Source of the DNA: Kiritimatiella glycovorans | GTDB taxonomy: Bacteria; Verrucomicrobiota; Kiritimatiellia; Kiritimatiellales; Kiritimatiellaceae | NCBI RefSeq assembly: GCF_001017655.1 | Contig: NZ_CP010904.1 | Coordinates: 720,001 to 752,000 of the forward strand | Length of the DNA: 32,000 nt | Reading direction: 5' to 3' | In this document: positions 15,375 to 32,000 of the stretch, one piece after another | How the letters are laid out: each line of letters begins with the position of its first letter | How positions within the stretch are numbered: position 1 is the first letter of the stretch | Notes under the pieces: model-generated | What the model saw: the letters and a program-made list of their open reading frames with translations, nothing else | What the model was told of the DNA's origin: nothing | The model's database searches: none | Position numbers and translations under genes: made by a program

Positions 15375-16855
15375 CAGTAGCATCCCATAAGGCCCCATAT
15401 CGGGGCACAGGACTTACGTAACCCCTTGCCCTGCAAGGGTCGCACTTTTTCTCCGAGCTATGTTTCATTTGATAATTTTCGCGATCAAGGATGCCCCTGT
15501 TTTTAAATGCGCCCGATGCTGTCCCACATCTCAGAGAGGGGACAACCCTAATCCGGGCAAATAGGCTTGTTGTGGGGCCCATTGCATCCGGAAGCTGCCC
15601 TGTGCTGTCCCATAGGATTTCAAATAAGCGAGCAGATGAAGCCGTTGCCACAGAACCGCGCGCAGGCAGGTAAACAACCGCGTAAAGCTGTGCGCCCAAT
15701 CGCTGCAGGTATGCAGAAAGCGGAGCAACACGTACATCAGCAGCGCCGTCCAGAGCTGCCACTCAATCGCCTTGCGGTTGTGCCCGAGGAAGTCGCCCAG
15801 GTGCAGCGTCTGCTTGATCTGTTTGAAGAAGGTTTCGATGTTCCATCGCGCCTTGTACAGATCACAGATGCTCGAGGCCGCCCACTCGAAGTTGTTCGTA
15901 AAGAAGGTCATTATCCGATCCTCGCCGTTGATCTCGATGCGGGCCACGATCCGGCGCATGCGCTTCGGATAGTCCTTTCGCTTACCGGGATTCTGAACGA
16001 GCACGAGATCGTCACGCAGGATGCGCCCCGCGGGCTTCTTCACCAGCCGCTTCACGCAGCGCAAGTTCATGCTTTCTTTCACGCGGCTCACCCAGAAGAT
16101 ACCCCGCTCGGCCAGTCTGAACAGATGCGTATAGTCGATGTAGGCCATGTCAAACACGGCGATTTCACCCGCCTTGAGGCCTGCGCACAACTCGTGCGCC
16201 TTGGTGCTGTCGTGCCCCCTGGCCGAGTCGACAATCGCGAAGGCCGGCAGGAAGCTCTCCAGGTTCAGCCGCAGGTGCAGCTTCGCGGCCGCCTTGCGCC
16301 GCCGATGCTTCGCCCAGTCCATGCAGTTGGCGAACAGCTTGATCGTCGTGGAGTCCAGGGCATACACCGTTCGTTTGAAGCGCCTCGGCAGTCGGCGGAA
16401 CTTCACGCCACCGAACCCCGGTCGCAACGTCTCGAAGTACTCGAGCACCGACCAGAAAAGCTCCTCGGCCATTTTCGGATCGCGGGTCTTGTTCGCGTGC
16501 GAGAGCCCGTTGCGGCTCGGTGGCTTGGCGCCACGGATGCTGGCCATCGGCGCCCGATGGGCGCGCAGCGCGTCCACCACGTCGTTCAGCCCGATCGCAT
16601 GGGTGAACTGCGCATAGAGCATGCTCACCAGATGGCTCCAGGGCGTGATGCCCCTCGACTTGATCCCGTGCTTGCGCGCAAGTTTCGGCACAAGGTGCGG
16701 CGGAATGAGTTCACAGACCTGACGAAAAATGGCACGCTTACTCCCGGCTCGACTGGCTGGCATCACGCAATCTCCTTTGGGTTAGACACTGAAGAAGATT
16801 GTAGCCAGTCAGTCAGCCATTACAATTTCCGTCCCTCGTGAGTGGGATGCTAGTG
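15375..16855 (-). mobile_element. IS4-family insertion sequence (about 1.48 kb)
   Basis: Terminal inverted repeats CAGTAGCATCCCA (15375-) and TGGGATGCTAGTG (-16855) bracket a single DDE transposase gene. I could not find a clean target duplication. Confidence 0.8.
15531..16766 (-). CDS. IS4-family DDE transposase (DUF4372-type N-terminus)
   Basis: N-terminus FRQVCELIPPHLVPKLARKHG...TPWSHLVSMLYAQ. DDE context VYALDSTTIKL / IAVFDMAYIDY / YKARWNIETFFKQIKQ (Y-R-E-K motif). Confidence 0.9.
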   Translation of the reverse strand: MMPASRAGSKRAIFRQVCELIPPHLVPKLARKHGIKSRGITPWSHLVSMLYAQFTHAIGLNDVVDALRAHRAPMASIRGAKPPSRNGLSHANKTRDPKMAEELFWSVLEYFETLRPGFGGVKFRRLPRRFKRTVYALDSTTIKLFANCMDWAKHRRRKAAAKLHLRLNLESFLPAFAIVDSARGHDSTKAHELCAGLKAGEIAVFDMAYIDYTHLFRLAERGIFWVSRVKESMNLRCVKRLVKKPAGRILRDDLVLVQNPGKRKDYPKRMRRIVARIEINGEDRIMTFFTNNFEWAASSICDLYKARWNIETFFKQIKQTLHLGDFLGHNRKAIEWQLWTALLMYVLLRFLHTCSDWAHSFTRLFTCLRAVLWQRLHLLAYLKSYGTAQGSFRMQWAPQQAYLPGLGLSPL

Positions 16856-16948: not shown

Positions 16949-17851
16949 ATGAGAAAATTATGTATGGCCTTGGCGGCAGTTCTCGTGGGTACGCTGGTTG
17001 CCGATGCGCAGACGGAATGGTGGTTTGAGAATGATTTTGCGGCCGGTTACGGTCGGCTCGAAAACGGCTGGAACTGGACCAACAACGCGAACCCGTACCT
17101 GAGCAGCAACCGGGTGGGGATTCTGACCGGCAACGAACCCAACATGGCCGGTACGAACTACTGGACCCCGAAGGCGCTCGATGATTTCTGGATCGAGCAG
17201 CGTGGAGGTACGCTGATGGATTACGGCGAGGATCTCTCCATCCGTAAAGACACCGTCTACACGCTGAACGACACCGGCAATGACGGGTCGTATACGAACA
17301 TCATCGTCCGCGACTATAAGCTCAATCTCTGGACGTGGGGTGGTACAAACCTGTTGAATCTTTACGCGGGAAACGTGTACGCCGACAAGACCTTCGGCAA
17401 CGCTTCGGACACACAGCTCACGCTCAGTAATGCTGTGGTCAACATTATGAGCAACAATATCAACGCCAACTGCGGGCTCACCCTGCTCTCCGGGGGGACC
17501 GGGGTGTGGCATCAGGTTCGCGCAAAATCCATCCCGACCATGGCGTTCGAAGATCCGGACGGGGATCCGACGATCGGCGACAATCACTTCATGGGTTCGA
17601 TCGTGTGGGAGACGAACGGTGCGAGTGCGATGACTCCGGCGGTCTGGAAATACTATCTCGGAAACGGGATCACGTACGACGGCAAGGCGATGCAGACCAC
17701 CAATGCTTCGCAGGACGATTATTATGCGAATTACTTTGTAATTTCGGACGACAATACGACGTTGACGGTGATTCCGGAGCCGACCACGTTCGGTCTGCTC
17801 GGATTTATCGGCCTTACACTTGCGGCCCTCCGCCGTAAACTGCACAGGTAG
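16949..17851 (+). CDS. PEP-CTERM sorting-domain secreted protein
   Basis: Signal peptide MRKLCMALAAVLVGTLVADA. The C-terminus VIPEPTTFGLLGFIGLTLAALRRKLHR gives PEP, a TM helix and a basic tail. GC content is visibly lower than in the flanking loci. Confidence 0.85.
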   Translation: MRKLCMALAAVLVGTLVADAQTEWWFENDFAAGYGRLENGWNWTNNANPYLSSNRVGILTGNEPNMAGTNYWTPKALDDFWIEQRGGTLMDYGEDLSIRKDTVYTLNDTGNDGSYTNIIVRDYKLNLWTWGGTNLLNLYAGNVYADKTFGNASDTQLTLSNAVVNIMSNNINANCGLTLLSGGTGVWHQVRAKSIPTMAFEDPDGDPTIGDNHFMGSIVWETNGASAMTPAVWKYYLGNGITYDGKAMQTTNASQDDYYANYFVISDDNTTLTVIPEPTTFGLLGFIGLTLAALRRKLHR

Positions 17852-18187: not shown

Positions 18188-18235
18188 TTGGGTAGGGCGC
18201 GATCTCCGAGCGCGCCGCTCTTCCGGACGGTTCTG
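18188..18235 (+). repeat. REP-like palindromic element, copy 1
   Basis: TTGGGTAGGGCGCGATCTCCGAGCGCGCCGCTCTTCCGGACGGTTCTG with stem GGCGCG/CGCGCC. Positions 18191-18235 match the reverse complement of 24171-24215 at 40/45. Confidence 0.7.
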
Positions 18236-18286: not shown

Positions 18287-18322
18287 TTGGGTAGGGCGCG
18301 ATCTCCGAGCGCGCCGCTCTTC
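18287..18322 (+). repeat. REP-like palindromic element, copy 2
   Basis: A 36-bp exact repeat of 18188-18223, 99 bp downstream in direct orientation. Confidence 0.7.
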
Positions 18323-18400
18323 TGCTTACCATGCGGGAACAATATTCGCCTCAAACAGGAATGCGCGTGGCACTTGGATTTCGTATGGTATCGGTTCTAA

Positions 18401-20380
18401 CCCGTCTTTCCCCGTTCGGCGGCCCAAACGTCTTTTTTCGGGGGTGTGACCTCCGTTTCGTCCTTTGTTTTCAAGGGGTCACGTTCCAAAAGGGGCTGTG
18501 GGGCAGACCTTGCCGGTTGACGACTTGATTTTCTGTGAAAAAATCGGGTTGTGTATTTGAAGTGCCACAGGCGACGCAAAGACGGCAAAGAGCACCGCTA
18601 CTGGAGCATCGTTGAAAGTGTGCGGACCCGGCGCGGCGTCATGAAGCGTCCGCTGCTCTATCTGGGCGAACTCAACGACAGCCAGAAGGCTCAATGGTGC
18701 TCGGCACTCGACGTGCTGGATGAATCGACCGATTCGGTTCGACAGATAAGCCTGTTCCCGGAAGACCGCACGCCGCCGCCGGAGGTGTCCCATCCCGTTC
18801 GGATCCGGCTTTCCCGGCTGAGCTTGCATCATCCGCGTCAGTGGGGCGGATGCTGGCTGGCCATGGAGTTGTGGAACGAGCTGGATCTGGACCGTTTCTG
18901 GAGCCCCCGTCTTCCCGCGAGCCGCAAGGGCACCGGCTGGCTCCACGTGCTCAAAACGCTGGTGACCTATCGTCTGCTCGATCCGGGCAGCGAGTGGCGG
19001 CTGCACCGCGACTGGTTTAAGGCCAGTGCCATGGCGGACCTGCTCGGCGAAGATGAGTCCATCGCGGCCAAAAACACGCTCTACCGCTGTCTCGATAAAC
19101 TCGGTGAACACAAAGCCGATCTGTTTTCGTTTCTAAAGACACAGTGGCGCCTGTTGTTCGACGCTTCCTACGAGGTGCTGCTTTATGACCTGACCAGCAC
19201 CTATTTTGAATGCGACGTGCCCGAACGCGAAGGGCTGCGCAAGTTCGGCTACAGTCGGGACAAGCGATCCGACTGCGTGCAGGTGGTCATTGCGCTGATC
19301 GTCACGCCCGAGGGCTTTCCGGTCGCCTACGAGGTGATGCCCGGGAACACCTCGGATAAAACGACCCTGCCGGACTTCCTGCGCAGGATCGAGGCGCAGT
19401 ACGGGAAGATGAACCGGCTCTGGATCATGGACCGGGGCATCCCGACCGAGGACGCGCTCGAACAGATGCGAGCAGAAGGCGCGAGCTATCTGGTGGGCAC
19501 GCCGCGCGGGCGGCTCAGCAAGCTCGAGGACCAGCTCTTCGGTCAACCGTGGAGGCAGGTGCAGGAGCAGATCGAGGTCAAGCTGGCCCGCGACGGGGAG
19601 GATCTTTACGTCCTCACCCGCAGCGGAAGTCGCTGCGATAAAGAGCGCTCCATGCGACAGCGCAAACTCAAGAAGCTCTGGAAGCGCCTGCATCAACTGG
19701 GGGGCATGAAAAACCTCAAGCGCGACGAACTTTTGCTGAAACTGGGTGCCGCCAAACAGGAAGCGGGCAAAGCCTGGGGTCTGGTGGACCTCCGCCTTCC
19801 CCAACCCCGCGAGGCCGTTACGCCGGAGAGCTTTCACTTCCGGCTGAACCGCAAAAAACTGCGTAAAGCCCGTCGAGGTGAAGGCACCTACCTGTTGCGC
19901 ACCAATCTGGCGGCCGAACAGCCCGAAGAGCTGTGGAAGCAATACATGGTCCTGAACGAGGTCGAGCAGGCCTTCAAGGAGCTGAAGAATGATCTGGATA
20001 TCCGCCCGGTGTATCACCAGAAGGATGAGCGGATCGAAGCGCACATCTTCGTGTCATTTTTGAGCTACGCTCTGCAAGTCACGCTGAAACAGCGGGCCAA
20101 AGCCAGGGCCCCGGGCTTGACCCCCCGCGCCATCCTGGAAAAGTTCAAAGCCGTGCAGATGATCGATGTGCACCTGCCCACGACCGACGGGCGCACCCTG
20201 ATCCTGCCGCGCTACACGCAACCGGAGAAAGACCTTCAGCTTCTGCTGCACCAGCTCAACCTGACGCTTCCGGAACAACCACCCCCTCGGCTTGAAGAGC
20301 TGAAGAAAAAATGTGGGGCAGACCTTTGAACTGAAATCGAAGAAAAAAGGCGTTTTCGCCGCCGAACAGGGAAAGACGGG
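18401..20380 (+). mobile_element. Intact IS1634-family insertion sequence (1980 bp)
   Basis: IRL is CCCGTCTTTCCCCGTTCGGCGGCCCAAACGTCTTTTTTCG. IRR, reverse-complemented, is CCCGTCTTTCCCTGTTCGGCGGCGAAAACGCCTTTTTTCT. It carries a single long transposase ORF. Confidence 0.85.
18551..20329 (+). CDS. IS1634-family (IS4 superfamily) DDE transposase
   Basis: GTG start. MYLKCHRRRKDGKEHRYWSIVESVRTRRG...LYLGEL is the hallmark N-terminus. DDE context LLYDLTSTYFE / WIMDRGIPTE / EVEQAFKELKNDL. Confidence 0.9.
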   Translation: MYLKCHRRRKDGKEHRYWSIVESVRTRRGVMKRPLLYLGELNDSQKAQWCSALDVLDESTDSVRQISLFPEDRTPPPEVSHPVRIRLSRLSLHHPRQWGGCWLAMELWNELDLDRFWSPRLPASRKGTGWLHVLKTLVTYRLLDPGSEWRLHRDWFKASAMADLLGEDESIAAKNTLYRCLDKLGEHKADLFSFLKTQWRLLFDASYEVLLYDLTSTYFECDVPEREGLRKFGYSRDKRSDCVQVVIALIVTPEGFPVAYEVMPGNTSDKTTLPDFLRRIEAQYGKMNRLWIMDRGIPTEDALEQMRAEGASYLVGTPRGRLSKLEDQLFGQPWRQVQEQIEVKLARDGEDLYVLTRSGSRCDKERSMRQRKLKKLWKRLHQLGGMKNLKRDELLLKLGAAKQEAGKAWGLVDLRLPQPREAVTPESFHFRLNRKKLRKARRGEGTYLLRTNLAAEQPEELWKQYMVLNEVEQAFKELKNDLDIRPVYHQKDERIEAHIFVSFLSYALQVTLKQRAKARAPGLTPRAILEKFKAVQMIDVHLPTTDGRTLILPRYTQPEKDLQLLLHQLNLTLPEQPPPRLEELKKKCGADL

Positions 20381-20382
20381 TT

Positions 20383-20922
20383 AACGAAGTCTTGCTCAAG
20401 GCGGCGGAGCTGCTGGTCAACCAGATAGTTGGTTTGATGAATAAGGCAGATGGCAATGTTGGCGACGGTTTCCGGCGGGCGGGTTTCGACAAATTCCCGG
20501 TAGAGTTCAAAGGTCTGCGGCTCTTGTCGTCCTAAATTGCGGACGAAGAGCGCCTCTTTACTGTTCGGCTCCCAGATGGTCAGGTCGCGGACGCGGAGAA
20601 AGTCGAGGTAGTCGTCGAGCAGTTCTTCGAGGCTGGCGCGCGCGACGTTGGTGAGTTTGATTTCCGTTTCCTTGGAGGTGAGGGCGGCTTTGCTGCCTTC
20701 GAGAATGTTTTTCTTTCCGGATCGGGCCGACTGAATCATCTGGTCAACGGTCCGGTCGCCGCGCGACAGGTATTTATGCGCGAAGCGAAAGGTAATGTCG
20801 TAGACGACTTCCGCTTTCTGGAATGAGAGCAGGGTTTGGTAGTCGCCACTTGGCGGGAGCACGGGATGAGAGTCATGGGAGCCATGAGATTCATGCGACT
20901 CATTCTTCTCATTCGTTCTCAT
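20383..20922 (-). pseudogene. Four-helix-bundle (23S rRNA IVS / Avd-like, suffix-domain type) gene, 5' part disrupted by IS insertion
   Basis: YQTLLSFQKAEVVYDITFRFAHKYL...QMIQSARSGKKNILEGS...LEELLDDYLDFLR...CLIHQTNYLVDQQLRRLEQDFV. After V180 the ORF-track reading continues into the IS end (NPSFPVRRRKRLFS). Confidence 0.8.
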
Positions 20923-21171: not shown

Positions 21172-22137
21172 TCATCCCGAATCACGGATGACCAGTTTGC
21201 CGGGGAAAAGGATCTCCTCCGGATCGGCGGGCGTCATGAGCGATTCGAAAACGCGCCCGGCCATGGCGTCCACGTCCTGGCGGACGGTGGTCAGCGCAGG
21301 AATAAACTTTGCCGCGAAGGGGATGTCGTCGAACCCCGTGACCGCGACTTCACCCGGCACGTCGATCCCGCGCTCGTGCAGGGCCTTGAGCGCGCCCATG
21401 GCCATGCGATCCGTCGCGCAGACCAGCGCATCGGCCCTCGCTCCCGAGCCCGGCCACCGGCGCGCGGATTCGTATCCGGCCTCGAAGCCGCCGGACGATT
21501 GAGGCGCCGCGGCTGTGAATCCGAGTCCCGCGTCACGGGCGGCGTCGCGCAGCTTGCGTTCGCGCAGCCGGTGCGCGGGCAGTTTCTGAGAGAGAAATCG
21601 CAGTCGCCGCCGGTCGTGTGCGGCGAGATGATCGATCAGCTTTTCCGCCGCGTCCTCTTCGTCCGTAGTCAGCCGCACGCTGCGCTCCTCTGAAGGACCG
21701 TGCCCCACACGCACCACCGGCAGCTGCGTGAACGACTCCAGCCACGGTGCCCCGGCGTCGGATCCCACGATGATCAGCGCGTCGATCGCGTGCTTGTGCA
21801 GCGGCCGCAGATCCCGTTCGTCCGGAACCCGGTTGACAAATCCGGCCAGCACCAGCGAGTACTCATGCCTGTGGGCCTGCTCCTGGATCCGATGAATCAT
21901 CATCCCGAAAAAGGGGTCGTTGAAGTCGTAGACCGCCACGCCGACCGTCCGGGTCGCCTTGCCCTTCAGCGATAACGCCGCCGCGTTCGGCACATACCCC
22001 AGCCGCTCCGCCGTCTCCAGCACACGCTGCTGCGTCGCCGCCGCAATGCCGATCTCGTCCGCCGTGCCCGAAAGCACGCGCGAGACCAGCGCCACCGAGA
22101 CGCCCAGCCGCTCCGCAATGTTCCGCTGACTCACCAT
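21172..22137 (-). CDS. LacI-family transcriptional regulator
   Basis: Starting at the ATG at 22137 gives MVSQRNIAERLGVSVALVSRVLSG (HTH) followed by a periplasmic-binding-fold sugar-binding domain. It is divergent from the uronate operon. Confidence 0.85.
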   Translation of the reverse strand: MVSQRNIAERLGVSVALVSRVLSGTADEIGIAAATQQRVLETAERLGYVPNAAALSLKGKATRTVGVAVYDFNDPFFGMMIHRIQEQAHRHEYSLVLAGFVNRVPDERDLRPLHKHAIDALIIVGSDAGAPWLESFTQLPVVRVGHGPSEERSVRLTTDEEDAAEKLIDHLAAHDRRRLRFLSQKLPAHRLRERKLRDAARDAGLGFTAAAPQSSGGFEAGYESARRWPGSGARADALVCATDRMAMGALKALHERGIDVPGEVAVTGFDDIPFAAKFIPALTTVRQDVDAMAGRVFESLMTPADPEEILFPGKLVIRDSG

Positions 22138-22301
22138 AATAAGAGGGCAGTATGACGGGGAATCGGCCACGAAAACAAGCAGGACATGAAGCTGACCCCT
22201 CTTCATGCCCTTGCCGTATTTGTGATGAATCAGATCTTGCCGGTCCCGAAGAAACACTCTATATTCTCAAACCATTGAGTAAAGCTGAGGGAGCCTGATG
22301 T

Positions 22302-23117
22302 ATGAACGATTATTTTGATCTCGGCGGCCGGGTGGTCGCGGTCACGGGGGCGGCGGGCGTGCTGGCGGGCGGTACGGCGCGCTATCTCCAGCAGCGGGGG
22401 GCGACGGCGGTCTACCTCGATCTGGAGGGGGAGCGCCTGGACGCGGCGCTGGAACAGGCGAAGGGCATTTCCGATAAGTGCGCGGCGTTTCCGTGTGATG
22501 TGCTCGACCGCGACCGGCTGGCGCAGGTGCGCGACGAGGTAAAGCGCACATTCGGCCGCGTGGATGCCCTGATCAACGGCGCGGGCGGCAATATGGCCGG
22601 GGCGACGATCGGTCCGGAGCAGGAGGTGTTCGATCTGGAGGTCGAGGCCTACGACAGGGTGCTCGATCTGAACCTGAAGGGCACGGTTCTGCCGACGCTG
22701 GCGTTCGCGGAGGCGTTCCGGGAACAGCGCGCGGGGTGCGTGGTCAATTTTTCGTCCATGGCCGCCGGGCGGGCGCTGACCCGCGTGCTGGGGTACTCCA
22801 ACGCCAAGGCGGCGGTGGAGAACTTCACGCGCTGGATGGCGACCGAGCTGGCGCAAAAGTACGGCGACGGTCTGCGCGTCAATGCCGTCGCGCCGGGATT
22901 CTTTATCGGCGAACAGAACCGGAGGCTCCTTACGAACGAGGACGGATCCTACACGGAGCGCGGCCGGCAGGTGATCGATCAGACGCCGTTCGGCCGTTTC
23001 GGTGAGGCGCACGAGGTCTACGGTACGGTCCATTACCTGCTTTCCGACGCGGCGTCGTTCGTAACCGGCGCGGTGATCCCCATCGACGGCGGGTTTTCAG
23101 CCTACAGCGGAGTGTGA
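22302..23117 (+). CDS. SDR-family oxidoreductase, D-mannonate/fructuronate oxidoreductase-like (short-chain UxuB type)
   Basis: VTGAAGVLAG, NGAGGNMAGATIGPEQ, SSMAA...YSNAKAA, APGFFIGEQNRRLLTNEDGS.TERG, and a C-terminal IDGGFSAYSGV tail typical of the Bacteroidota/PVC UxuB-type SDRs. Confidence 0.75.
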   Translation: MNDYFDLGGRVVAVTGAAGVLAGGTARYLQQRGATAVYLDLEGERLDAALEQAKGISDKCAAFPCDVLDRDRLAQVRDEVKRTFGRVDALINGAGGNMAGATIGPEQEVFDLEVEAYDRVLDLNLKGTVLPTLAFAEAFREQRAGCVVNFSSMAAGRALTRVLGYSNAKAAVENFTRWMATELAQKYGDGLRVNAVAPGFFIGEQNRRLLTNEDGSYTERGRQVIDQTPFGRFGEAHEVYGTVHYLLSDAASFVTGAVIPIDGGFSAYSGV

Positions 23118-23120
23118 ATC

Positions 23121-24155
23121 ATGACGGATCATCAATGGGAACTTTTATGCCGGATCGTTGCGGGGGAGGCGGTCGAGACGCCTCCGGTCGGATTCATCAT
23201 CGACAGCCCGTGGCTGCCGGGCTGGCACGGGGTGAGCACCCTCTCGTACTACGCCTCCGACCGCGCCTGGCTGGAGGCCAACCTGAATGCGGTCGAGTCC
23301 TTCCCGGAGGTGATGTTCATCCCGGGGTTCTGGTCGGAGTTCGGGATGTGTACCGAACCCTCGGCGTTCGGTGCAAAATGCAGCTGGGAGACCGATGCGC
23401 TGCCGCACGCCCACCGCGTGATTACCGAGGCGGCCCGGGCGGGCGAGATCGCCAAGCCCGATGTGCGCCGGGACGGGCTGCTGCCTTTCGTGATCGAACG
23501 GCTCGCCGGCGCACAGCCGGCCATGCGCGAGGCCGGCCATGAAATCCGCTTCGCCGTATCCCGTGGCCCGCTCAATATCGCCTCGTTCCTGATGGGGACC
23601 ACCGAGTTTCTGCTCGCGCTCTACACCGAGCGCGAGGCGTGCGAGGCGCTGCTGAAGACCATTACCGATTTTGTCGTCGACTGGATCGGATATCAGAAGG
23701 AGCGGTTCGATACGATCGATGCCGTGCTCGTGCTCGACGACATCGTGGGGTTTGTGGGCGAGGAGGATTACCTTCAGTTCGCCCATCCTTACCTGGAGCG
23801 GATCTTCCAGTCGTTCCCGTTCAGTGTGAAGGCCTTTCACAATGATGCCAAAGGGCTGGTGTGCGCCCCGCATCTCTCCGGGGCCGGCATCAACCTGTTC
23901 AATTTCGCCTTTGAACACGGGTTGGATGAAATGCGCGCGTTGTGCGGGGAAGAGGTGACGTTGTGGGGTAACCTGCCGCCGCGCGATACCCTGGCCGCGC
24001 AGTCCCCGGACGAAGTGCGCGCCGCAGCGGCCGACATGGTGCGCGGCTGTACCGATCCCCGCCGCGTGCTGTTTTCGTGCGGCGGCGGCATGCCGCCCGA
24101 CGTCCGCAGCGAACAGCTGCGCGCGTTCGTGGAAGGGTGCAGACAGGAAGGGTAG
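23121..24155 (+). CDS. Uroporphyrinogen decarboxylase (URO-D/MtaA-like) family protein, function unknown
   Basis: The length, and motifs such as IDSPWLPGW, FWSEFGMCTEPSAFG, LDDIVGFV and FSCGGGMPP, fit the URO-D TIM-barrel family. It sits 3 nt after the SDR gene. Confidence 0.7.
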   Translation: MTDHQWELLCRIVAGEAVETPPVGFIIDSPWLPGWHGVSTLSYYASDRAWLEANLNAVESFPEVMFIPGFWSEFGMCTEPSAFGAKCSWETDALPHAHRVITEAARAGEIAKPDVRRDGLLPFVIERLAGAQPAMREAGHEIRFAVSRGPLNIASFLMGTTEFLLALYTEREACEALLKTITDFVVDWIGYQKERFDTIDAVLVLDDIVGFVGEEDYLQFAHPYLERIFQSFPFSVKAFHNDAKGLVCAPHLSGAGINLFNFAFEHGLDEMRALCGEEVTLWGNLPPRDTLAAQSPDEVRAAAADMVRGCTDPRRVLFSCGGGMPPDVRSEQLRAFVEGCRQEG

Positions 24156-24170
24156 GGATTCCAACGTACG

Positions 24171-24215
24171 TCAGGACCGTCCGGAACAGCGGCGCACTCG
24201 GGGATCGCGCCCTGC
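24171..24215 (-). repeat. REP-like palindromic element, copy 3 (inverted orientation, intra-operon)
   Basis: The reverse complement GGCAGGGCGCGATCCCCGAGTGCGCCGCTGTTCCGGACGGTCCTG matches 18191-18235 at 40/45. Confidence 0.65.
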
Positions 24216-24261
24216 CGGAACCCAAAGAAGGAATGCAGACGCGAAAGGGAGAGGCCGAACC

Positions 24262-25335
24262 ATGACCGAGAAGGCACAGAAGACATACGCGCTGGTCGTG
24301 CCGACCAGCATGGGGCTGCGACTGACCCCGGACGACGCGCAGCCGTTCCACAGCAGCGATCGGTTCCACATGCACGCGACCAGCGCGGAGAGCAATGTGG
24401 CCAGCGTGGTTTCCTATCTCGGGCTCCCGGTCAAGGTGCTGACCGCGTTCGTCAGCGGGAGCCCCGTCTCGCACTTTATACAAACCAACCTGCGCAGCCG
24501 GGGGATGGCGATCGAAGGCCCCGGGTTCGAGCAGGGCGGACCGTGGGGGCTGCGCCACCAGATCAACATGGCCGACCGCGGGTGGGGCTCGCGGGGACCG
24601 CGGGTGCACAACGACCGCGCCGGCGAGGTCGCGCGCGGATTGCGGCCGGAGGACTTCGACCTGAACCGGATTTTCGGTCAGGAGGGCGCGCGGATCGTCC
24701 ATCTCTCGGGCCTGATCGCGGCGCTCTCTCCGGAGACCGGCCGGCTGTGTCTGGAGATCGCCCGGGTGGCGCGGGAACACGGATCGCTGATCTCGTTTGA
24801 TCTGAATCACCGCGCGAGCTTCTGGAAGGGACGCGAGCGCGAACTCGCGGAGGTGTTTGCCGGAATCGCCGCGAACAGCGATATCCTGGTCGGCAACGAA
24901 GAGGACTTCCAGCTCTGTCTCGGGATCGAGGGTCCGGAGTCCGGCGGAAAGGGGCTGGAGGCGAAGATCGACGACTTCAAGGAGATGATCGGCCGCGTGC
25001 AGTCCGCGTATCCCGGCGCCTCGCGGTTCGCGACCACGCTGCGGGAAGTACACTCCGCCAACCGCCACCTGTGGGGCGCCCTGGCCGTACAGGACGGCGA
25101 GTGGGAGGTCATCCGCCCGCGTGAGATCGGAGTGCTGGACCGGATCGGCGGCGGCGACGGCTTTGTCGGCGGGCTGCTGTACGGTACACTCAAAGAGTGG
25201 GATATCCACCGCTGCGCGCAGTTCGGATGGGCCTGCGGCGCGCTGGCGGCGACGCTGCGAACCGACTACGCCCAGCCGGTCAGCGAGGAGCAGGTCTGGG
25301 GCATCTGGGAAGGCAATGCGCGGGTCAGGCGCTAG
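24262..25335 (+). CDS. kdgK: PfkB-family sugar kinase, 2-dehydro-3-deoxygluconokinase-like
   Basis: DRIGGGDGFVGGLLYG is the PfkB signature 2. The overall layout is like the long KdgK type. Substrate is inferred from context only. Confidence 0.7.
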   Translation: MTEKAQKTYALVVPTSMGLRLTPDDAQPFHSSDRFHMHATSAESNVASVVSYLGLPVKVLTAFVSGSPVSHFIQTNLRSRGMAIEGPGFEQGGPWGLRHQINMADRGWGSRGPRVHNDRAGEVARGLRPEDFDLNRIFGQEGARIVHLSGLIAALSPETGRLCLEIARVAREHGSLISFDLNHRASFWKGRERELAEVFAGIAANSDILVGNEEDFQLCLGIEGPESGGKGLEAKIDDFKEMIGRVQSAYPGASRFATTLREVHSANRHLWGALAVQDGEWEVIRPREIGVLDRIGGGDGFVGGLLYGTLKEWDIHRCAQFGWACGALAATLRTDYAQPVSEEQVWGIWEGNARVRR

Positions 25336-25362
25336 GTTTTTATCATAAACGGAGGAACGACG

Positions 25363-26811
25363 ATGAACGCGGATATCGGACTGATCGGTCTGGCGGTGAT
25401 GGGAGAGAACCTGGTGCTCAACATGGAGAGCAAAGGGTTCAGCGTGGCGGTCTACAATCGTACGACCGAGAAGGTCGACCGCTTTGTCGGCGGACGCGGC
25501 GCGGGCAAAAACATCACCGGCTGCCATTCGATCGAGGAACTGTGCGCCGCGCTGGAGCGCCCGCGCAAAGTGATGATGCTCGTCAAGGCGGGCGGGGCCG
25601 TCGACGCTCTCATCGAAAAGCTGATGCCGCACCTTGAAGAGGGCGACATCATCATCGACGGCGGCAACTCGCACTTTCCCGACACCATCCGCCGCACGGA
25701 AACCGTCGAGAGCCGCGGTCTGCTCTACATCGGTACCGGCGTCTCCGGCGGCGAGGAGGGCGCCCTGAAAGGGCCGTCCATCATGCCCGGCGGATCGCCG
25801 GCGGCGTGGGAACACGTCAGGCCGATCTTTCAGAAGATCGCCGCGCAGACCGCCGACGGCGAGCCGTGCTGCGACTGGGTCGGCGAAGGCGGCGCGGGGC
25901 ATTTCGTCAAGATGGTCCACAACGGGATCGAGTACGGCGACATGCAGATGATCTGCGAGACGTACCAGATGATGAAGGCGGGCCTCGGGATGTCGAACGA
26001 AGAGATGCACGAGGTCTTCGGCCAGTGGAACCAGGGCGAACTCGACAGCTATCTCATCGAGATCACCCGCGACATCCTCGGCTATAAGACCGAAGACGGC
26101 GAGGCCGTCATCGACTCGATCCTCGACACGGCCGGGCAGAAGGGGACCGGCAAGTGGACGGCGCAGGCGGCCCTCGACCTCGGCCAGCCGCTCACGCTGA
26201 TCGGCGAGGCCGTGTTCGCCCGCTGCCTGTCGGCGCTCAAGGACGAACGCGTGGCCGCGTCGAAGGAGCTGTCCGGACCGGACGGGAACTTCGAGGGCGA
26301 TCGCGAGGCGATGATCGAGGATCTGCGCCAGGCGCTGTACGCGTCGAAGATCGCCTCCTACGCCCAGGGCTACCAGCTGATGCGCGCTGCGGCGGCGGAG
26401 TACGGCTGGAATCTGAACTACGGCGGCATCGCGCTGATGTGGCGCGGGGGGTGCATCATCCGCTCCGTCTTCCTCGGAAAGATCAAGGAGGCCTTCGACC
26501 ACGACCCCGAGCTGGTGAACCTGCTGCTCGACCCGTTCTTCCAGTCGGCCGTGGACCAGGCCCAGGCGGGCTGGCGGCGGGTGGTGAGCCGGGCGGTCGA
26601 GCTGGGGATCCCGATGCCGGCCATCAGTTCCGCGCTCGCGTTCTACGACGGATACCGCAGTGCGCGGCTTCCGGCGAACCTGCTGCAGGCTCAGCGCGAT
26701 TACTTCGGGGCGCACACCTACGAACGGGTCGACCGGCCGCGCGGCGAGTTTTTCCACACCAACTGGACCGGCCGCGGCGGCGATACGGCGGCCTCCACCT
26801 ACAGCGTATAA
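25363..26811 (+). CDS. gnd: 6-phosphogluconate dehydrogenase, decarboxylating
   Basis: MNADIGLIGLAVMGENLVLNMESKGF...VSGGEEGAL.GPSIMPGG...HFVKMVHNGIEYGDMQ...LLQAQRDYFGAHTYER are textbook Gnd motifs. Confidence 0.9.
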   Translation: MNADIGLIGLAVMGENLVLNMESKGFSVAVYNRTTEKVDRFVGGRGAGKNITGCHSIEELCAALERPRKVMMLVKAGGAVDALIEKLMPHLEEGDIIIDGGNSHFPDTIRRTETVESRGLLYIGTGVSGGEEGALKGPSIMPGGSPAAWEHVRPIFQKIAAQTADGEPCCDWVGEGGAGHFVKMVHNGIEYGDMQMICETYQMMKAGLGMSNEEMHEVFGQWNQGELDSYLIEITRDILGYKTEDGEAVIDSILDTAGQKGTGKWTAQAALDLGQPLTLIGEAVFARCLSALKDERVAASKELSGPDGNFEGDREAMIEDLRQALYASKIASYAQGYQLMRAAAAEYGWNLNYGGIALMWRGGCIIRSVFLGKIKEAFDHDPELVNLLLDPFFQSAVDQAQAGWRRVVSRAVELGIPMPAISSALAFYDGYRSARLPANLLQAQRDYFGAHTYERVDRPRGEFFHTNWTGRGGDTAASTYSV

Positions 26812-26822
26812 GGACATCGGGT

Positions 26823-28115
26823 ATGCCGTGGTTTATTCGTAAAGATGAGTCGATCGCCCGCACGGAGATCGAGCAGTTGTGTCAGCGCACGCTCGACGAG
26901 GCGCGCGACCGTCTGGGGTGTTCGTTCAGACGGGTGCTGCTGCTGCCGCCGGATATCACCCGCGCCCACTGCGGCGCGGGCTGGATCGCTGAAACCTTCG
27001 ACCGGCTGCTGCCGGATAGCTGTGAGGTTCACATGATTCCCACCCTGGGACAGCATGTGCCGCATACGAAGGCCGACAACCGGTGGATGTTCGGGGATTT
27101 CCCGGAGGAGCGGATTCATGCCCACGACTGGCGCAACGGGGTCACCCGGATGGGGACCATCCCCGCCGCGCGCGTGGCGGAGAGCACCGACGGAAAGGCC
27201 GACTGGGAGATCCCGGTCGATCTCAACACCATGACGGTCGAGGGCGGGTGGGACCTGATCATCAACATCGGCCACGTCGTCCCGCATGAAGTGCTCGGGT
27301 TTGCGAACCACAACAAAAACTATTTCATCGGGCTCGGCGGCAAGGAAACCATTTGTGCGTCTCACCTCGCCGCGGGCGTGTACGGAATCGAGAACAACCT
27401 CGGCCGGCTCATCACGCCGCTGCGGGCCTGCTACAACTGGGCGGAAGAACAGTTTCTGGGGCATTGGCCGCACGTCTACATGATGGTGACCATGAAGCGT
27501 GACGAACAGAATCGGCTGGTGCACAGCGGCGTCTATGTCGGGGACGACGTCGACACCTACCTGGCGGCGGCCGAAACCAGCCTCGAGCAGAACATCACCG
27601 TTTTTGAACGACCGGTGAAAAAGATCGTGGCGGTCATGCAGGCCGATGAATTCCGCGCCACCTGGGTGGCGAATAAAGCCGTATACCGTACCCGCATGGC
27701 GATGGCCGACGGAGGGGAGCTGCTGATTATCGCGCCCGGGGTCGAGCGCTTCGGCGAGCAGAAGGAGGTCGACGCCCTCATTCGCACCTACGGCTACTGC
27801 GGGTCGCCTCAGGTGCTGGATCTCTACAAAAAGAAACGGGACCTCCAGGACCTGGCTCACGGCGCGGCGCACCTGATGCACGGGTCGTCCGAAGGACGGT
27901 TTACCATCCGCTACGCCCCGGGCGGCCTGAGTCGCGAAGAGGTCGAAGGCGTTCATTACGAATACGCCGACCCCCGGGAGGCCCTGGCGCGCTACAATCC
28001 GGAGACCATGCAGGAGGGCTGGAACACGATGCCGGACGGCGAAGAGGTCTTTTTCATCAGCACGCCCTCCGCGGGGTTGTGGTCCGTGAAGGAGAAAGTT
28101 GGAGGCGGCCGATGA
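26823..28115 (+). CDS. LarA-like (DUF2088) nickel-pincer-cofactor-type 2-hydroxyacid racemase/epimerase homolog
   Basis: The ATG at 26823 lies 9 nt after the gnd stop. PTLGQHVPHT and NIGHVVPHEVLGFANHNKNYFIGLGGKETICASH align by eye with the LarA His/His/Lys/His catalytic and cofactor residues. The ORF-track start at 26154 is an out-of-frame overlap with gnd. Confidence 0.7.
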   Translation: MPWFIRKDESIARTEIEQLCQRTLDEARDRLGCSFRRVLLLPPDITRAHCGAGWIAETFDRLLPDSCEVHMIPTLGQHVPHTKADNRWMFGDFPEERIHAHDWRNGVTRMGTIPAARVAESTDGKADWEIPVDLNTMTVEGGWDLIINIGHVVPHEVLGFANHNKNYFIGLGGKETICASHLAAGVYGIENNLGRLITPLRACYNWAEEQFLGHWPHVYMMVTMKRDEQNRLVHSGVYVGDDVDTYLAAAETSLEQNITVFERPVKKIVAVMQADEFRATWVANKAVYRTRMAMADGGELLIIAPGVERFGEQKEVDALIRTYGYCGSPQVLDLYKKKRDLQDLAHGAAHLMHGSSEGRFTIRYAPGGLSREEVEGVHYEYADPREALARYNPETMQEGWNTMPDGEEVFFISTPSAGLWSVKEKVGGGR

Positions 28116-29563
28116 AGGCGTTTATGGACGAAGATTTTCTCCTGCAGACCCCGAGCGCCCGGAGGCTCTACCACGACCACGCCGCGCGGATGCCGATCAT
28201 CGATTACCACTGTCATCTGCCGCCGGAGGACATCGCCGCGGACCGCGCGTACGACAACCTCGGCGAGGCCTGGCTGGCGGGCGATCACTACAAGTGGCGC
28301 GCGATGCGCTCCAACGGCATACCCGAAGACCGAATTACAGGCGGGGCGGACTGGAGGGAGAAATTCGACGCCTGGGCGGCGACGGTGCCGCATACGCTTC
28401 GGAATCCCCTCTACCACTGGACGCACCTGGAGCTGCAGCGCTATTTCGGGATCTCCGATCTGCTCAACCCCGACACGGCGGGGTCCATCTATGAACGCGC
28501 CTCGGAGATGCTGCGGACCCCCGAGTTCTCCGCGCGCAACCTGATGCGGCGGATGAACGTGAAGGCGGTCTGCACCACCGACGATCCCGTCGATTCGCTG
28601 CAGCATCACGCGCGGCTCTGCCGCGAGGGGTTCGAGATCGAAGTCCGCCCCGCCTTCCGGCCCGACCGGGCCATGAAGCTCGAAGATCCCGCCGCCTGGC
28701 GTGAATATCTCGAGACCCTGGGCTCCGCCGCGAAGGTGGAGATCCGTGATTTCGCCTCGCTGCTCGAGGCCGTGGATGAGCGCCATGCCTTTTTTCATTC
28801 CATGGGCTGCCGACTTTCGGATCACGGCGTGGAATACGTCCCGGACGCCGAGGCGTGCTCCGCGGAACTGGAGGCGATTTTCGCCAAGGCCCTGCAGGGG
28901 GAGGTGGTCTCGCGCGCCGAACGCGACGCCTTTCAGGCGGCCTTTCTGTACGCCGTCGCCCGCATGAACCATGTCCGTGGATGGGCGCAGCAGTTTCATG
29001 TCGGAGTCGCGCGGAGCAACAACTCCCGGCGGCTCCGCGAACTGGGACCCGATACCGGCTTCGATTCGATCGGCGATTTCCGTCAGGGCCCCGGCCTCGT
29101 ACGACTGCTCGACCGGCTCGACGCCTCGCACCATCTCGCGCGCACGGTGCTCTACAACATCAACCCGGCGGACCACGCCCTGATGGCGACGGTCATCGGC
29201 AGCTTCCAGGACGCCTCCCGCCCCGGCAAGATGCAGTGGGGTTCGGCCTGGTGGTTCCTCGACCACAAACAGGGTATGGAAGAGCATCTCAACACCCTCT
29301 CCGCCGACGGCCTGTTGAGCCGCTTTGTGGGCATGCTCACCGACTCGCGCAGTTTTCTGTCCTACCCGCGCCACGAGTACTTCCGGCGCATCCTCTGCAA
29401 CCTCGTGGGGAACGAGGTGGAACACGGCGAGATTCCCGCCGATTTCGATTTGCTGGGCGGGATGATCGAGGATGTCTGTTTCCATAACGCGCGGGATTAC
29501 TTCTTCGGGGGAGAAAGAGGGAAGGAAGTTGAGGGAGAGGATGGGGGAAAGATAAAGATATGA
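28112..29563 (+). CDS. uxaC: Glucuronate isomerase
   Basis: MKAFMDEDFLLQTPSARRLYHDHAARMPIIDYHCHLPPEDIA...GDHYKWRAMRSNG is near-canonical UxaC. ATGA overlap with the upstream stop. The last ~18 codons (GGERGKEVEGEDGGKIKI) look repeat-derived. Confidence 0.9.
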   Translation: MKAFMDEDFLLQTPSARRLYHDHAARMPIIDYHCHLPPEDIAADRAYDNLGEAWLAGDHYKWRAMRSNGIPEDRITGGADWREKFDAWAATVPHTLRNPLYHWTHLELQRYFGISDLLNPDTAGSIYERASEMLRTPEFSARNLMRRMNVKAVCTTDDPVDSLQHHARLCREGFEIEVRPAFRPDRAMKLEDPAAWREYLETLGSAAKVEIRDFASLLEAVDERHAFFHSMGCRLSDHGVEYVPDAEACSAELEAIFAKALQGEVVSRAERDAFQAAFLYAVARMNHVRGWAQQFHVGVARSNNSRRLRELGPDTGFDSIGDFRQGPGLVRLLDRLDASHHLARTVLYNINPADHALMATVIGSFQDASRPGKMQWGSAWWFLDHKQGMEEHLNTLSADGLLSRFVGMLTDSRSFLSYPRHEYFRRILCNLVGNEVEHGEIPADFDLLGGMIEDVCFHNARDYFFGGERGKEVEGEDGGKIKI

Positions 29564-29632: not shown

Positions 29633-29872
29633 ATGAGAACGACCCTTCAGATTCAGGATTCGCTGCTTGAGCGGGTGAGGCGGGAGGCCGCGAACCGGCA
29701 CTGTTCGCTTGGCACGGTGGTTAATGAAGCCCTTGCCCGGGCATACTCGGACCGCAGTCGAACTCCCGATCGTGGTAAAACGAAGCTTCCGGTGTACAAA
29801 GGACGCGGACTCCAGCCGGGTGTTGATCTGGATTCTTCGACCGCCCTTGAGGATCTGATGGAGGGGCGATGA
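29633..29872 (+). CDS. Type II antitoxin, VapB-like
   Basis: 79 aa. MRTTLQIQDSLLERVRREAANRHCSLGTVVNEAL has an RHH/DUF2191-like N-terminus. ATGA overlap with the PIN toxin gene. Confidence 0.7.
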   Translation: MRTTLQIQDSLLERVRREAANRHCSLGTVVNEALARAYSDRSRTPDRGKTKLPVYKGRGLQPGVDLDSSTALEDLMEGR

Positions 29873-30300
29873 TTCTTTTTGACGTTAACGTGCTGGTCTA
29901 TGCCTATCGGGAGGATGCGGACCGGCACAAAGAGTACCGTCGCTGGCTGAAGTCGACGCTGGATGGCCAGGAGGCGTGTGCGGTTTCGGAACTGGTGCTG
30001 AGCGGGTTCCTGAGGGTGTGCACGCATCCGAAGGTCTTTGATCCTCCCGCGCCGCTTGACGGAGCGCTGGATTTTACAGGCGAGCTGCGCAGCCACGCCA
30101 ATGTGATGGTGTTGAGCCCCGGTCACAGACACTGGGAAATCTTCCAGCGGCTATGTCGGGACAGTGGCGCAAAGGGCAATCTGATCAGCGATGCATACCA
30201 CGCGGCCCTTGCCGTCGAGTACGGATGCGAATGGATCACAACCGACCGCGATTTCGCCCGGTTCCAGGGGCTGAAATGGCGTCATCCGCTTGACGGATGA
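29869..30300 (+). CDS. vapC: Type II toxin, PIN-domain ribonuclease VapC
   Basis: MILFDVNVLVYA (first acidic residue), SELVLSGFLR, LISDAYHAALAVEYGCEWITTDRDFARF (PIN acidic residues). Confidence 0.85.
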   Translation: MILFDVNVLVYAYREDADRHKEYRRWLKSTLDGQEACAVSELVLSGFLRVCTHPKVFDPPAPLDGALDFTGELRSHANVMVLSPGHRHWEIFQRLCRDSGAKGNLISDAYHAALAVEYGCEWITTDRDFARFQGLKWRHPLDG

Positions 30301-30364
30301 CGGGTCCGGATGTAAGCCGTCCCTTTTTTGCAGCCGGCGAAGTGCGCTTTTTACCATGGCCTTA

Positions 30365-32000
30365 ATGACGCTCAAAGATGTTCACATGGCCTTCGGCGGT
30401 CCGCCGATCCTGGACGGCGTGGATATGACGATCGAGCCGGGTGAGCGGGTCTGCCTGATGGGCCGCAACGGCGCGGGTAAATCGACGCTCCTGAAGATCA
30501 TCGCGGGCGAGTTGATTCCCCACGACGGCGAGATCGTCCGCCGGCAGGATCTCGTCGTCGCCCAGCTCGAACAGGAAGTGCCGATGGACCGTACGGGTTC
30601 GGTCTTCGATATCGTCTCCGAGGAGTGGGACCACGAGCACGAGCTGAGCCATCCCGTCGAGCGCGCGATCTCGCTGCTGAAACTCGATCCGCGGGCGGAG
30701 TTCTCGACGCTCTCGGGCGGCACGCGCCGCCGCGTACTGCTGGCGCGGGCGCTGGTGAACGAGCCCGACATTCTGATCCTCGACGAGCCGACGAACCATC
30801 TCGATATCGAGGCGATCGAGTGGCTGGAGACCTTCCTTAAACGGCGCGACGGCGCACTGCTGTTCGTGACGCACGACCGCGCGTTCGTGCGCAATCTGTC
30901 GACGAGGATCATAGAGCTGGACCGCGGCGCGCTCTACAGCTGGGATCTGGATTACGACACCTACATCGAACGGCGCGCCGAGCGCCTGAGGGTGGAGCGG
31001 TCGCACTGGAAGGAGTTCGATAAGAGGCTGGCGGAGGAAGAGCAGTGGATCCGCGAGGGGATTTCCGCGCGGCGTACGCGCAACATCGGCCGCGTGCGCA
31101 ACCTCTACGCGATGCGCAGCGAGCGCGGAAAGCGCCGCAGGCAGGGCCGCGGCGCGCGCTTTTCGATCCAGGAGGCCGAGTCGACCGGCCGCAAGGTCAT
31201 CACCGCGAAGAACGCCACCTACGCGTGGGACGGCGAACCGGCCGTAAACGGCTTGAATCTCAAGATCCAGCGCGGCGACCGGATCGGGATCATCGGGCCC
31301 AACGGCTGCGGGAAGTCGACCCTCCTGCGCCTGCTGCTCGGCGACCTCGAACCGCAGTCGGGGACCGTGAAACACGGCACCAATCTCGAACCGGCCTACT
31401 TCGACCAGCACCGGCAGGAACTCGACGAGAACCGCAGCGTGAAACAGAACCTGTGCGACGACAATCAGTACGTCTTCATCGGCGGGCGCAAGATGCACGT
31501 GCTCGGATACCTGCGCAATTTCCTCTTCACGCGCGAGGATGCCGCGCGGCCGGTCTGCGGCCTGTCCGGCGGTGAACGCAACCGGCTGTTGCTCGCCAAG
31601 CTCTTTGCGCGCACCGCCAACGTACTGGTGCTCGACGAGCCGACCAACGATCTCGACAGCGACACCATGGAGGTGCTCGAAGAGCAGCTCATGGACTTCG
31701 AGGGAACGATTCTGCTCGTCAGCCACGATCGCGCGTTCCTGAATAACGTGGTCGACCGCATCCTCGCCTTCGAGGGGAACGGTCGTGTCGGCGAGTACGT
31801 CGGTGGATACGACGACTGGGTGCGCCAGAGCGGCGGGCTGAAGAAGGAAAGGCCCCCGCCGAAGACGCACAAACCCGCGCAGAGCACGCAGAAGGCGCGT
31901 CCGCGCAAACTGAATAACAAACAGCGCGAAGAGCTGGAGAAACTGCCCGCGCGGATCGAGGCGCTTGAGCGCGAACTTGACGCGCTGCAGTCCACGCTCA
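30365..32000 (+). CDS. uup: ABC-F family ATPase, Uup-like (3' end outside the window)
   Basis: It is not in the ORF track because no stop lies inside the window. I translated it manually and found no stop from 30365 to 32000. Domain 1 has GRNGAGKST / LSGGTRRRVLLARAL / ILILDEPTNHLD. The linker is WIREGISARRTRNIGRVRNL. Domain 2 has GPNGCGKST / LSGGERNRLLLAKL / VLVLDEPTNDLD. A basic coiled-coil tail follows. Confidence 0.9.
   Translation, partial: MTLKDVHMAFGGPPILDGVDMTIEPGERVCLMGRNGAGKSTLLKIIAGELIPHDGEIVRRQDLVVAQLEQEVPMDRTGSVFDIVSEEWDHEHELSHPVERAISLLKLDPRAEFSTLSGGTRRRVLLARALVNEPDILILDEPTNHLDIEAIEWLETFLKRRDGALLFVTHDRAFVRNLSTRIIELDRGALYSWDLDYDTYIERRAERLRVERSHWKEFDKRLAEEEQWIREGISARRTRNIGRVRNLYAMRSERGKRRRQGRGARFSIQEAESTGRKVITAKNATYAWDGEPAVNGLNLKIQRGDRIGIIGPNGCGKSTLLRLLLGDLEPQSGTVKHGTNLEPAYFDQHRQELDENRSVKQNLCDDNQYVFIGGRKMHVLGYLRNFLFTREDAARPVCGLSGGERNRLLLAKLFARTANVLVLDEPTNDLDSDTMEVLEEQLMDFEGTILLVSHDRAFLNNVVDRILAFEGNGRVGEYVGGYDDWVRQSGGLKKERPPPKTHKPAQSTQKARPRKLNNKQREELEKLPARIEALERELDALQSTL

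Follow-up and report, generated by a model that had tools for sequence, protein, structure and literature searches.

A LacI-controlled hexuronate operon of Kiritimatiella glycovorans that probably feeds the pentose-phosphate pool through a GntE-type shunt

We analysed a hexuronate operon of Kiritimatiella glycovorans located at positions 21172–29563 of a 32-kb window (the whole stretch of DNA analysed, 32,000 nt of contig NZ_CP010904.1; coordinates are those of the window unless another locus is named). The operon encodes a glucuronate isomerase (UxaC), a short-chain dehydrogenase/reductase (SDR) of the fructuronate reductase type, a PfkB-family kinase, a 6-phosphogluconate dehydrogenase (Gnd), a LarA homologue (LarAH) belonging to group 18 of the LarA superfamily and a protein with the uroporphyrinogen decarboxylase (URO-D) fold. 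We consider it likely that this LacI-controlled operon sends glucuronate to the pentose-phosphate pool by a shunt of the GntE type, in which mannonate would be epimerised to gluconate, phosphorylated and oxidatively decarboxylated.

The operon is a variant of an already proposed route and not a new pathway. According to Valk 2020 and Desguin 2020, Rodionova 2012 proposed a link between gntE, gntK and gnd that carries hexuronates into a pentose-phosphate/phosphoketolase route in Thermotoga maritima; homologues in Lactobacillus, Acidobacterium and Terriglobus were noted there as well, according to Valk 2020. The mannonate/gluconate epimerase activity was subsequently measured for GntE1 and GntE2 (Desguin 2020). 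A preliminary description of the K. glycovorans locus had not recognised the pathway as characterised, which is corrected by this literature: the proposal for T. maritima dates from 2012, and in 2020 the epimerase step was shown, a variant was reported from Lactobacillus suebicus and the gene neighbourhood of group 18 was tabulated. New here are the PfkB paralogue, the presence of uxuA beside the cluster in relatives and the recurrence of the URO-D-fold protein in hexuronate loci.

The proposed scheme has five steps. UxaC would isomerise D-glucuronate to D-fructuronate, as its confident family assignment indicates, and the SDR would reduce fructuronate to D-mannonate, again by family assignment. 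The LarA homologue, with nickel-pincer nucleotide (NPN) as cofactor, would then invert C2 of mannonate to give D-gluconate, and the PfkB paralogue would phosphorylate C6 to give 6-phosphogluconate. Finally, Gnd would convert 6-phosphogluconate to ribulose-5-phosphate, CO2 and NADPH, as expected of its family. We infer the third step from the conservation of catalytic residues, from the specificity signature of GntE enzymes and from the gene neighbourhoods, and the role of PfkB in this branch from the neighbourhoods and its distinctness from KdgK. The net conversion of glucuronate and ATP to ribulose-5-phosphate and CO2 would be redox-neutral and would therefore suit a fermenting anaerobe. This chemistry had been outlined in the preliminary description and remains the best-supported reading in view of the residues, the signature and the kinase neighbourhoods, with the epimerase and kinase steps retaining the standing of predictions. 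The shunt would branch from mannonate alongside the UxuA/KdgK/Eda branch, not necessarily replacing it, and the URO-D-fold protein would be an accessory, dispensable to the five steps.

Gene identities were based on profile searches (Pfam, NCBIfam), which strongly supported all seven genes of the locus. Together with the open reading frame (ORF) calls, these searches bore out the six tightly packed plus-strand genes and the divergent LacI gene that had been described. The first gene of the operon (22302–23117, +) encodes the SDR, a fructuronate reductase/D-mannonate oxidoreductase of UxuB function, which scored 336.8 bits against the D-mannonate oxidoreductase model NF006132 (cut-off 281) but only 120 bits against the kduD model. 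The gene for the URO-D-fold TIM-barrel protein begins 3 nt past it (23121–24155, +; PF01208, E 6e-33). It is followed by the genes for the PfkB-family sugar-acid kinase, a KdgK paralogue (24262–25335, +; PF00294), the decarboxylating NADP-dependent Gnd (25363–26811, +; TIGR00873, 778 bits, cut-off 427), the LarA homologue (26823–28115, +; PF09861, NF052594) and UxaC (28112–29563, +; PF02614, 663 bits; NF002794, 612 bits, cut-off 387). The intergenic gaps were, in order, 3, 106, 27 and 11 nt, followed by an ATGA overlap of the LarA homologue stop with the uxaC start, in keeping with the range of 3–106 nt and the single overlap reported earlier. A candidate ATGA overlap between gnd and the LarA homologue gene was rejected, the true start of the latter being 26823.

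The LacI-family regulator is encoded at 21172–22137 on the minus strand (Pfam LacI HTH, Peripla_BP_3 and Peripla_BP_1). Its longest ORF extends to 22257; we placed the start at 22137 because the helix-turn-helix begins at M41. The protein scored below all NCBIfam equivalog cut-offs. The divergent intergenic region of 164 nt (22138–22301) contained one sigma-70-like site (22237–22265, +). Two such sites were found in 9.5 kb, with 1.5 expected, which is not significant alone, and the promoter-like match is not above chance. No inverted-repeat LacI operator was found in the divergent intergenic region. The G+C content of the window was approximately 64%. No uxuA, eda, gluconokinase (gntK), larB, larC or larE gene is encoded anywhere in the 32-kb window, which extends to its full length the earlier remark that UxuA and Eda were not in view.

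The assignment of the LarA homologue to the LarA superfamily is confident on profile evidence. It scored 34.5 bits against Lar_N (PF09861, cut-off 23.3) and 579 bits against NF052594, the model for a nickel-dependent putative hexonate epimerase (NPN_18, group 18; cut-off 500). Its best PDB sequence match, and its sole significant structural relative, was 4NAR from T. maritima (E 6e-29), which was afterwards identified as the D-gluconate 2-epimerase GntE2 (Desguin 2020); the identity between group 18 and GntE2 is about 28%, as estimated from the PDB alignment. The reference positions were LarA D72, R75, H108, H174, K184, H200 and K298, i.e., the two catalytic histidines, the D/R/K residues and the cofactor-binding lysine and histidine. 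Residues D44, R47, H78, H155, K165, H181 and K285 of the LarA homologue fall on these positions, and the alignment to R41, H154, K164 and H180 of GntE2 supports this assignment.

The residues conserved in the LarA homologue were D44, R47, H78, H155, E156, V157, K165, H181, W281, K285, A349 and H350. Four of them (E156, V157, A349, H350) form the GntE signature, which consists of E and V in the loop after the catalytic histidine and A and H in helix 14 (Gatreddi/Desguin 2024, JBC, PMC11770544); like the catalytic and cofactor-binding residues, they were the same in another 13 homologues, which represent two subclades. The catalytic, cofactor and signature residues were invariant in an alignment of 15 homologues 70–85% identical to the LarA homologue and were also held in the second group-18 subclade, which is only 42–46% identical. 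The protein falls in group 18 and not in the biochemically characterised GntE groups (19, 20 and the LarAH15 branch). We infer that it is a putative nickel-pincer-dependent, GntE-like D-mannonate/D-gluconate 2-epimerase.

The same residues bear on the order of the epimerase and kinase steps. In extracts of L. suebicus, mannonate was phosphorylated first and 6-phosphomannonate was then epimerised, with no direct conversion of mannonate to gluconate; the genes were not identified (Valk 2020). By analogy, PfkB could be a D-mannonate 6-kinase and the group-18 protein a 6-phosphomannonate 2-epimerase that feeds Gnd directly, an arrangement that we consider unlikely. Apart from the L. suebicus precedent, a homologue of TM0442 is present in the proteome of that species, and we found no later literature naming its genes. 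The estimated identity to GntE2 is low enough to leave room for this order, and extra conserved histidines and arginines lie near the active-site segments (H49, H163, R289, R291, H353, R359). GntE1, of group 19, has a Km for mannonate of 120 mM, a value so high that its native substrate is in doubt, which hints at another compound. Nevertheless, the four specificity positions are the same as in enzymes acting on free mannonate, and the candidate kinases of L. suebicus are gluconokinase homologues, not PfkB proteins. Epimerisation of free mannonate ahead of phosphorylation is therefore the order we retain in the predicted scheme.

The gene neighbourhoods of LarA homologues were assessed in a scan of one genome per species, which returned 80 loci at 64–82% identity from Kiritimatiellia, Verrucomicrobia, Planctomycetes, Acidobacteria, Actinobacteria and other groups (at least five phyla). 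ORFs lying up to 8 kb from the LarA homologue were clustered, the top clusters were named by NCBIfam/Pfam and the counts were taken out of 78 loci. The neighbours were LarB (22 loci), an SDR of the window's mannonate oxidoreductase type (about 16), LarE (15), UxaC (at least 13), a galactonate/hexuronate-type transporter of the major facilitator superfamily (MFS; 11), Gnd (about 10), UxaE (8), an FGGY gluconokinase-like kinase (7) and the PfkB type found in the window (5). In loci from Actinobacteria and some Verrucomicrobia (Methylacidiphilales), the FGGY kinase occupied the kinase position. The loci with a LarB or LarE gene next to the group-18 gene include three sister metagenome-assembled genomes (MAGs; L004, L005, L006), and in L006 larE and larB flanked the PfkB-Gnd-LarAH module. 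The census agrees with and extends Table S1 of Desguin 2020, in which the neighbours of group 18 were SDR (36%), 6-phosphogluconate dehydrogenase (32%), a ribokinase-family kinase (16%), MFS (12%), glucuronate isomerase (12%) and KduI (12%).

These neighbourhoods also bear on the substrate. Desguin 2020 hypothesised only "a hexonate" for group 18 and suggested substrates other than mannonate for group 19, so an epimerase acting on another acid (L-gulonate/L-idonate, D-altronate/D-allonate or an aldarate), with Gnd fed by a different path, has to be weighed. Two group-18 paralogues stand in tandem in the close relative L002; they are 46% identical to each other and 43% identical to the protein encoded in the window, and two specificities are suggested by this divergence. 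However, both paralogue clades have the same specificity residues, and the genes that most commonly co-occur with the LarA homologue are those for the mannonate-forming SDR, UxaC, UxaE, a kinase and Gnd, a set that defines what goes in (mannonate) and what comes out (6-phosphogluconate). A different acid is thus highly improbable as the substrate, and D-mannonate remains the predicted one.

Several observations on group 18 and its loci were made in passing. The NCBIfam group holds two subclades, 42–46% identical, with a common active-site signature. Clade A occupies the LarAH position of the cluster in K. glycovorans, and clade B in Pontiella, strain S94 and Phycisphaerae-like genomes. The tandem of L002, a Kiritimatiellia-like MAG, consists of one member of each subclade within a PfkB-Gnd-LarAH-UROD-UxaC cluster (L002 8700–11275). 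Directly past the PfkB-Gnd-LarAH module, two sister Kiritimatiellae MAGs have larB and then a dehydrogenase gene of the Ldh_2 family (PF02615, 392 bits; L005 3834–5054, L006 5571–6704). The Ldh_2 family includes 2,3-diketo-L-gulonate reductase.

The kinase was examined for its relation to KdgK, the kinase that acts on 2-keto-3-deoxygluconate (KDG) in the Ashwell pathway. The best PDB match of PfkB was the KdgK of T. maritima (2afb, E 4e-34), its nearest solved relative, and its best NCBIfam match was the kinase half of a fusion of 2-keto-3-deoxy-6-phosphogluconate (KDPG) aldolase and kinase. Its orthologues are publicly annotated as 2-dehydro-3-deoxygluconokinase, and uxuA divergently adjoins the orthologous gene in Pontiella desulfatans (L165), Verrucomicrobia bacterium S94 (L166) and L002. 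On these grounds PfkB could be a classical KDG kinase, with uxuA and eda located elsewhere, and the LarA homologue and Gnd could form a side branch with another gluconokinase or be co-located without shared flux. We think this rather improbable. The protein scored far below every KdgK equivalog cut-off (103 bits against 440, 42 against 400 and 21 against 400). It has the PfkB/ribokinase fold only, with no homology to P-loop GntK or FGGY GntK, and may work like a gluconokinase while belonging to neither gluconokinase family.

The contexts of the kinase point in the same direction. Orthologues with 73–78% identity are widespread in Kiritimatiellales and Phycisphaerae/Planctomycetes. Six orthologue contexts (L165–L170) were picked through PfkB alone, without reference to the LarA homologue; LarAH, Gnd and UxaC were within 5 kb of PfkB in all six. 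The gene orders were PfkB-Gnd-LarAH-Gnd-UxaC in Pontiella desulfatans and PfkB-Gnd-LarAH-UxaC-fucosidase-UROD-MFS in S94, both preceded by uxuA on the minus strand, UxaE-SDR-LarAH-PfkB-x-Gnd-UxaC in a Planctomycetes MAG and LarAH-PfkB-Gnd-UxaC in a Phycisphaerae MAG. The gene set of a T. maritima-type shunt, with UxaC, a reductase for fructuronate, an epimerase of the LarA type, a putative hexonate kinase and Gnd, is present in the single operon of the window and recurs in L165–L170. In Pontiella desulfatans, two full-length gnd genes flank the LarA homologue (L165 11094–15328), both above the TIGR00873 cut-off.

The most informative contexts came from two Planctomycetes-like genomes that carry two PfkB types: PfkB#1-Eda-UxaC-SDR-LarAH-PfkB#2-Gnd (L169) and PfkB#1-Eda-UROD-TRAP ... 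UxaE-SDR-LarAH-PfkB#2-Gnd-UxaC (L170). PfkB#1 is paired with the KDPG aldolase and is 33% identical to the type found in the window, and it scored 260 bits against the KDPG-aldolase/kinase model versus 161 bits for the window type, which stands between LarAH and Gnd. In the window and in the six contexts chosen through PfkB, Eda is never next to the window-type PfkB, whereas Gnd and LarAH are always found within 5 kb of it. Throughout the window-type family, the GG motif of the substrate lid (EGGGEYNVA) is replaced by a near-invariant ATSAESNVA, while the catalytic GGGD motif is kept. That the window-type PfkB represents a conserved paralogue separate from KdgK is new here. It would serve the LarAH/Gnd branch as its dedicated kinase, with gluconate or mannonate, and not KDG, as the substrate.

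The same relatives bear on the place of the shunt in uronate catabolism. The uxuA gene lies directly beside the orthologous cluster, in divergent orientation, in Pontiella desulfatans, S94 and L002, and KdgK-Eda share the cluster in L169 and L170; mannonate therefore looks like a branch point. The "bypass" of dehydratase and aldolase put forward earlier is too strong in the light of these arrangements, and the shunt probably forms a second branch instead of replacing the dehydratase route.

Several points weigh against the shunt. The activities of the group-18 LarA homologues and of this PfkB subfamily are predictions from sequence and gene context. The adjacency of uxuA in three relatives means that PfkB could still act on KDG, and the epimerisation of 6-phosphomannonate, not mannonate, in L. 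suebicus extracts means that the order of the third and fourth steps is not fixed. The window is without the larB, larC and larE genes, and many group-18 genes stand alone (e.g., L001). The published accounts that we found contain no record of K. glycovorans growing on glucuronate; the description paper of the species makes no mention of uronate, gluconate, pentose phosphate or nickel, and the supplements of the Pontiella paper do not list the pathway genes. Pontiella strains can be cultivated and do use glucuronate for growth.

The operon shares features with several known systems. In the proposed GntE shunt of T. maritima (locus TM0438–TM0443: gnd, uxaE, uxaD, gntE, gntK), a hexuronate is likewise converted via fructuronate, mannonate, gluconate (by an NPN-dependent 2-epimerase) and 6-phosphogluconate to the Gnd product. 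There, too, gnd lies inside the hexuronate locus, and the epimerase is a LarA-superfamily member with the same catalytic and specificity residues. The K. glycovorans epimerase, known from sequence, differs in belonging to group 18 and not group 20, its kinase is a KdgK-derived PfkB and not a GntK homologue, and the operon contains an SDR reductase and an embedded URO-D-fold gene, with no UxaE in the window. The hybrid isomerase/phosphoketolase pathway of L. suebicus (Valk 2020) similarly links mannonate of the isomerase route to 6-phosphogluconate and Gnd, giving a redox-neutral conversion of uronate to ribulose-5-phosphate in a fermenting anaerobe, but it was shown in extracts and is phospho-first, an order from which K. 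glycovorans may differ. The Ashwell pathway (UxaC, UxuB, UxuA, KdgK, KdgA/Eda) shares UxaC, the reduction of fructuronate to mannonate, a KdgK-homologous kinase and, in the three relatives, the adjacent uxuA. It differs in that the window has neither UxuA nor Eda, in that the kinase here is a separate paralogue, which two genomes carry in addition to a bona fide KdgK-Eda pair, and in its products (pyruvate and glyceraldehyde-3-phosphate, as opposed to the pentose phosphate and CO2 predicted here). Finally, the Corynebacterium glutamicum LarAH19/GntE1 is also an NPN-dependent mannonate/gluconate 2-epimerase in a uronate gene context (LarB, LarE, UxaC, LacI), but it belongs to another phylogenetic group and has the high Km for mannonate given above.

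The URO-D-fold protein had been named as part of the cluster in the preliminary description but had no role in its scheme. It matched PF01208 over its full length. An identity as HemE was rejected: it scored 53.8 bits against a cut-off of 303, its N-terminal 77 residues were unaligned, and the HemE "GHG" aligned with "SCGGG", so that the histidine of GHG is not conserved. An identity as a corrinoid methyltransferase of the MtaA/CmuA type was rejected as well (49 bits, cut-off 235), and no corrinoid-protein gene was present in the window or in the contexts examined. An AlphaFold2 (AF2) model with a pLDDT of 89 gave Foldseek TM scores of 0.75–0.81 to HemE and an MtaA-like methyltransferase alike, at 17–21% identity. 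The invariant residues of the family, for which a search yielded at least 7,700 matches, were D28, R148, D206, D207, H240, N241 and D242, and C320 was nearly invariant (at least 90%).

The neighbours of this family were counted at 72 metagenomic loci chosen through the URO-D gene alone. They were an Nramp-like transporter (24 loci), a CsgG-like lipoprotein (18), a xylose-isomerase-like barrel (16), Gfo/Idh/MocA oxidoreductases (16 and 13) and a URO-D paralogue (11). Hexuronate genes were present in only about three of the 72 loci; the family is broader than uronate metabolism. Hexuronate loci that contain the gene, from three phyla by our reading, were LarAH-UROD-sulfatase-UxaC (L002), UxaC-fucosidase-UROD-MFS (L166), KdgK-Eda-UROD-TRAP (L170), UxaC-UROD (L150) and UROD-SDR-UxuA (L159). 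The frequent position next to transporters suggests an early action on an imported compound. The idea that the protein stands in for UxaE (tagaturonate/fructuronate epimerase) was weakened because L170 carries both genes. Tentatively, the protein may have an enzymatic role in uronate catabolism that has so far gone unrecognised, acting on the imported substrate before or alongside UxaC/UxuB, for example by converting some modified uronate, or an alternative one, to members of the glucuronate/fructuronate pool, although we regard this as doubtful.

At the wider URO-D loci, the Nramp-like neighbour is a transporter of 585 aa with a weak Nramp match, sometimes encoded between two URO-D paralogues (L085–L164; e.g., L120 5809–7566, L084 7074–11044). 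Genes for DUF6807, Gfo/Idh/MocA and xylose-isomerase-like barrel proteins were also common there. These URO-D/Nramp-like loci look like a sugar-conversion module of bacteria of the Planctomycetes–Verrucomicrobia–Chlamydiae (PVC) group and Bacteroidota.

The remainder of the window contains several other features. From translations alone, the region 768–14426 reads as an exopolysaccharide biosynthesis/export cluster, encoding an exporter similar to Wza, a Wzc-like chain-length/tyrosine-kinase protein, a membrane protein that resembles O-antigen ligase, and several glycosyltransferases and hexapeptide acetyltransferases. Insertion sequences occupy 15.2–20.4 kb. A complete one (18398–20384) has 42-nt terminal inverted repeats (18398–18439 and 20342–20383, 90% complementary) on either side of a transposase gene (18551–20329, 592 aa). 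An exact 139-nt copy of its left end (15236–15374) lies beside a second transposase gene (15531–16766, −). At its right end, the complete element runs into the 3′ end of a gene that encodes a four-helix-bundle protein resembling the 23S rRNA intervening-sequence protein (IVP; 20236–20922), and this gene may therefore be disrupted. Two identical 36-nt direct repeats, TTGGGTAGGGCGCGATCTCCGAGCGCGCCGCTCTTC, are found just upstream of the insertion sequence at 18188–18223 and 18287–18322, 99 nt apart. Between the two transposase genes lies a gene for a secreted protein of 300 aa (16949–17851) that ends in a PEP-CTERM-like sorting signal (…VIPEPTTFGLLGFIGLTLAALRRKLHR). Downstream of the operon, a VapB-like antitoxin ORF (29633–29872) overlaps a PIN-domain toxin gene (29869–30300) by ATGA, and an ABC-F ATPase gene (30353–32000) runs past the window end. 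The orthologous clusters of Pontiella desulfatans and S94 likewise have an ABC-F gene downstream, which indicates residual synteny.

The shunt would turn uronic acids into pentose phosphate without net redox cost and would widen the range of possible products in fermenting anaerobes; its appeal for engineering the utilisation of pectin or uronate feedstocks has been pointed out (Valk 2020). The analysis raises questions about three enzymes, namely the substrate of LarA group 18, the specificity of the KdgK-derived hexonate kinase and the reaction of the URO-D-fold accessory. The module is conserved in Kiritimatiellales, Phycisphaerae-like and Planctomycetes-like genomes. Such conservation suggests a regular role of nickel-dependent epimerisation in the use of uronate-rich sulfated glycans by anaerobic polysaccharide degraders of marine and sediment habitats. 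If so, the use of such glycans by these bacteria would carry a requirement for nickel.

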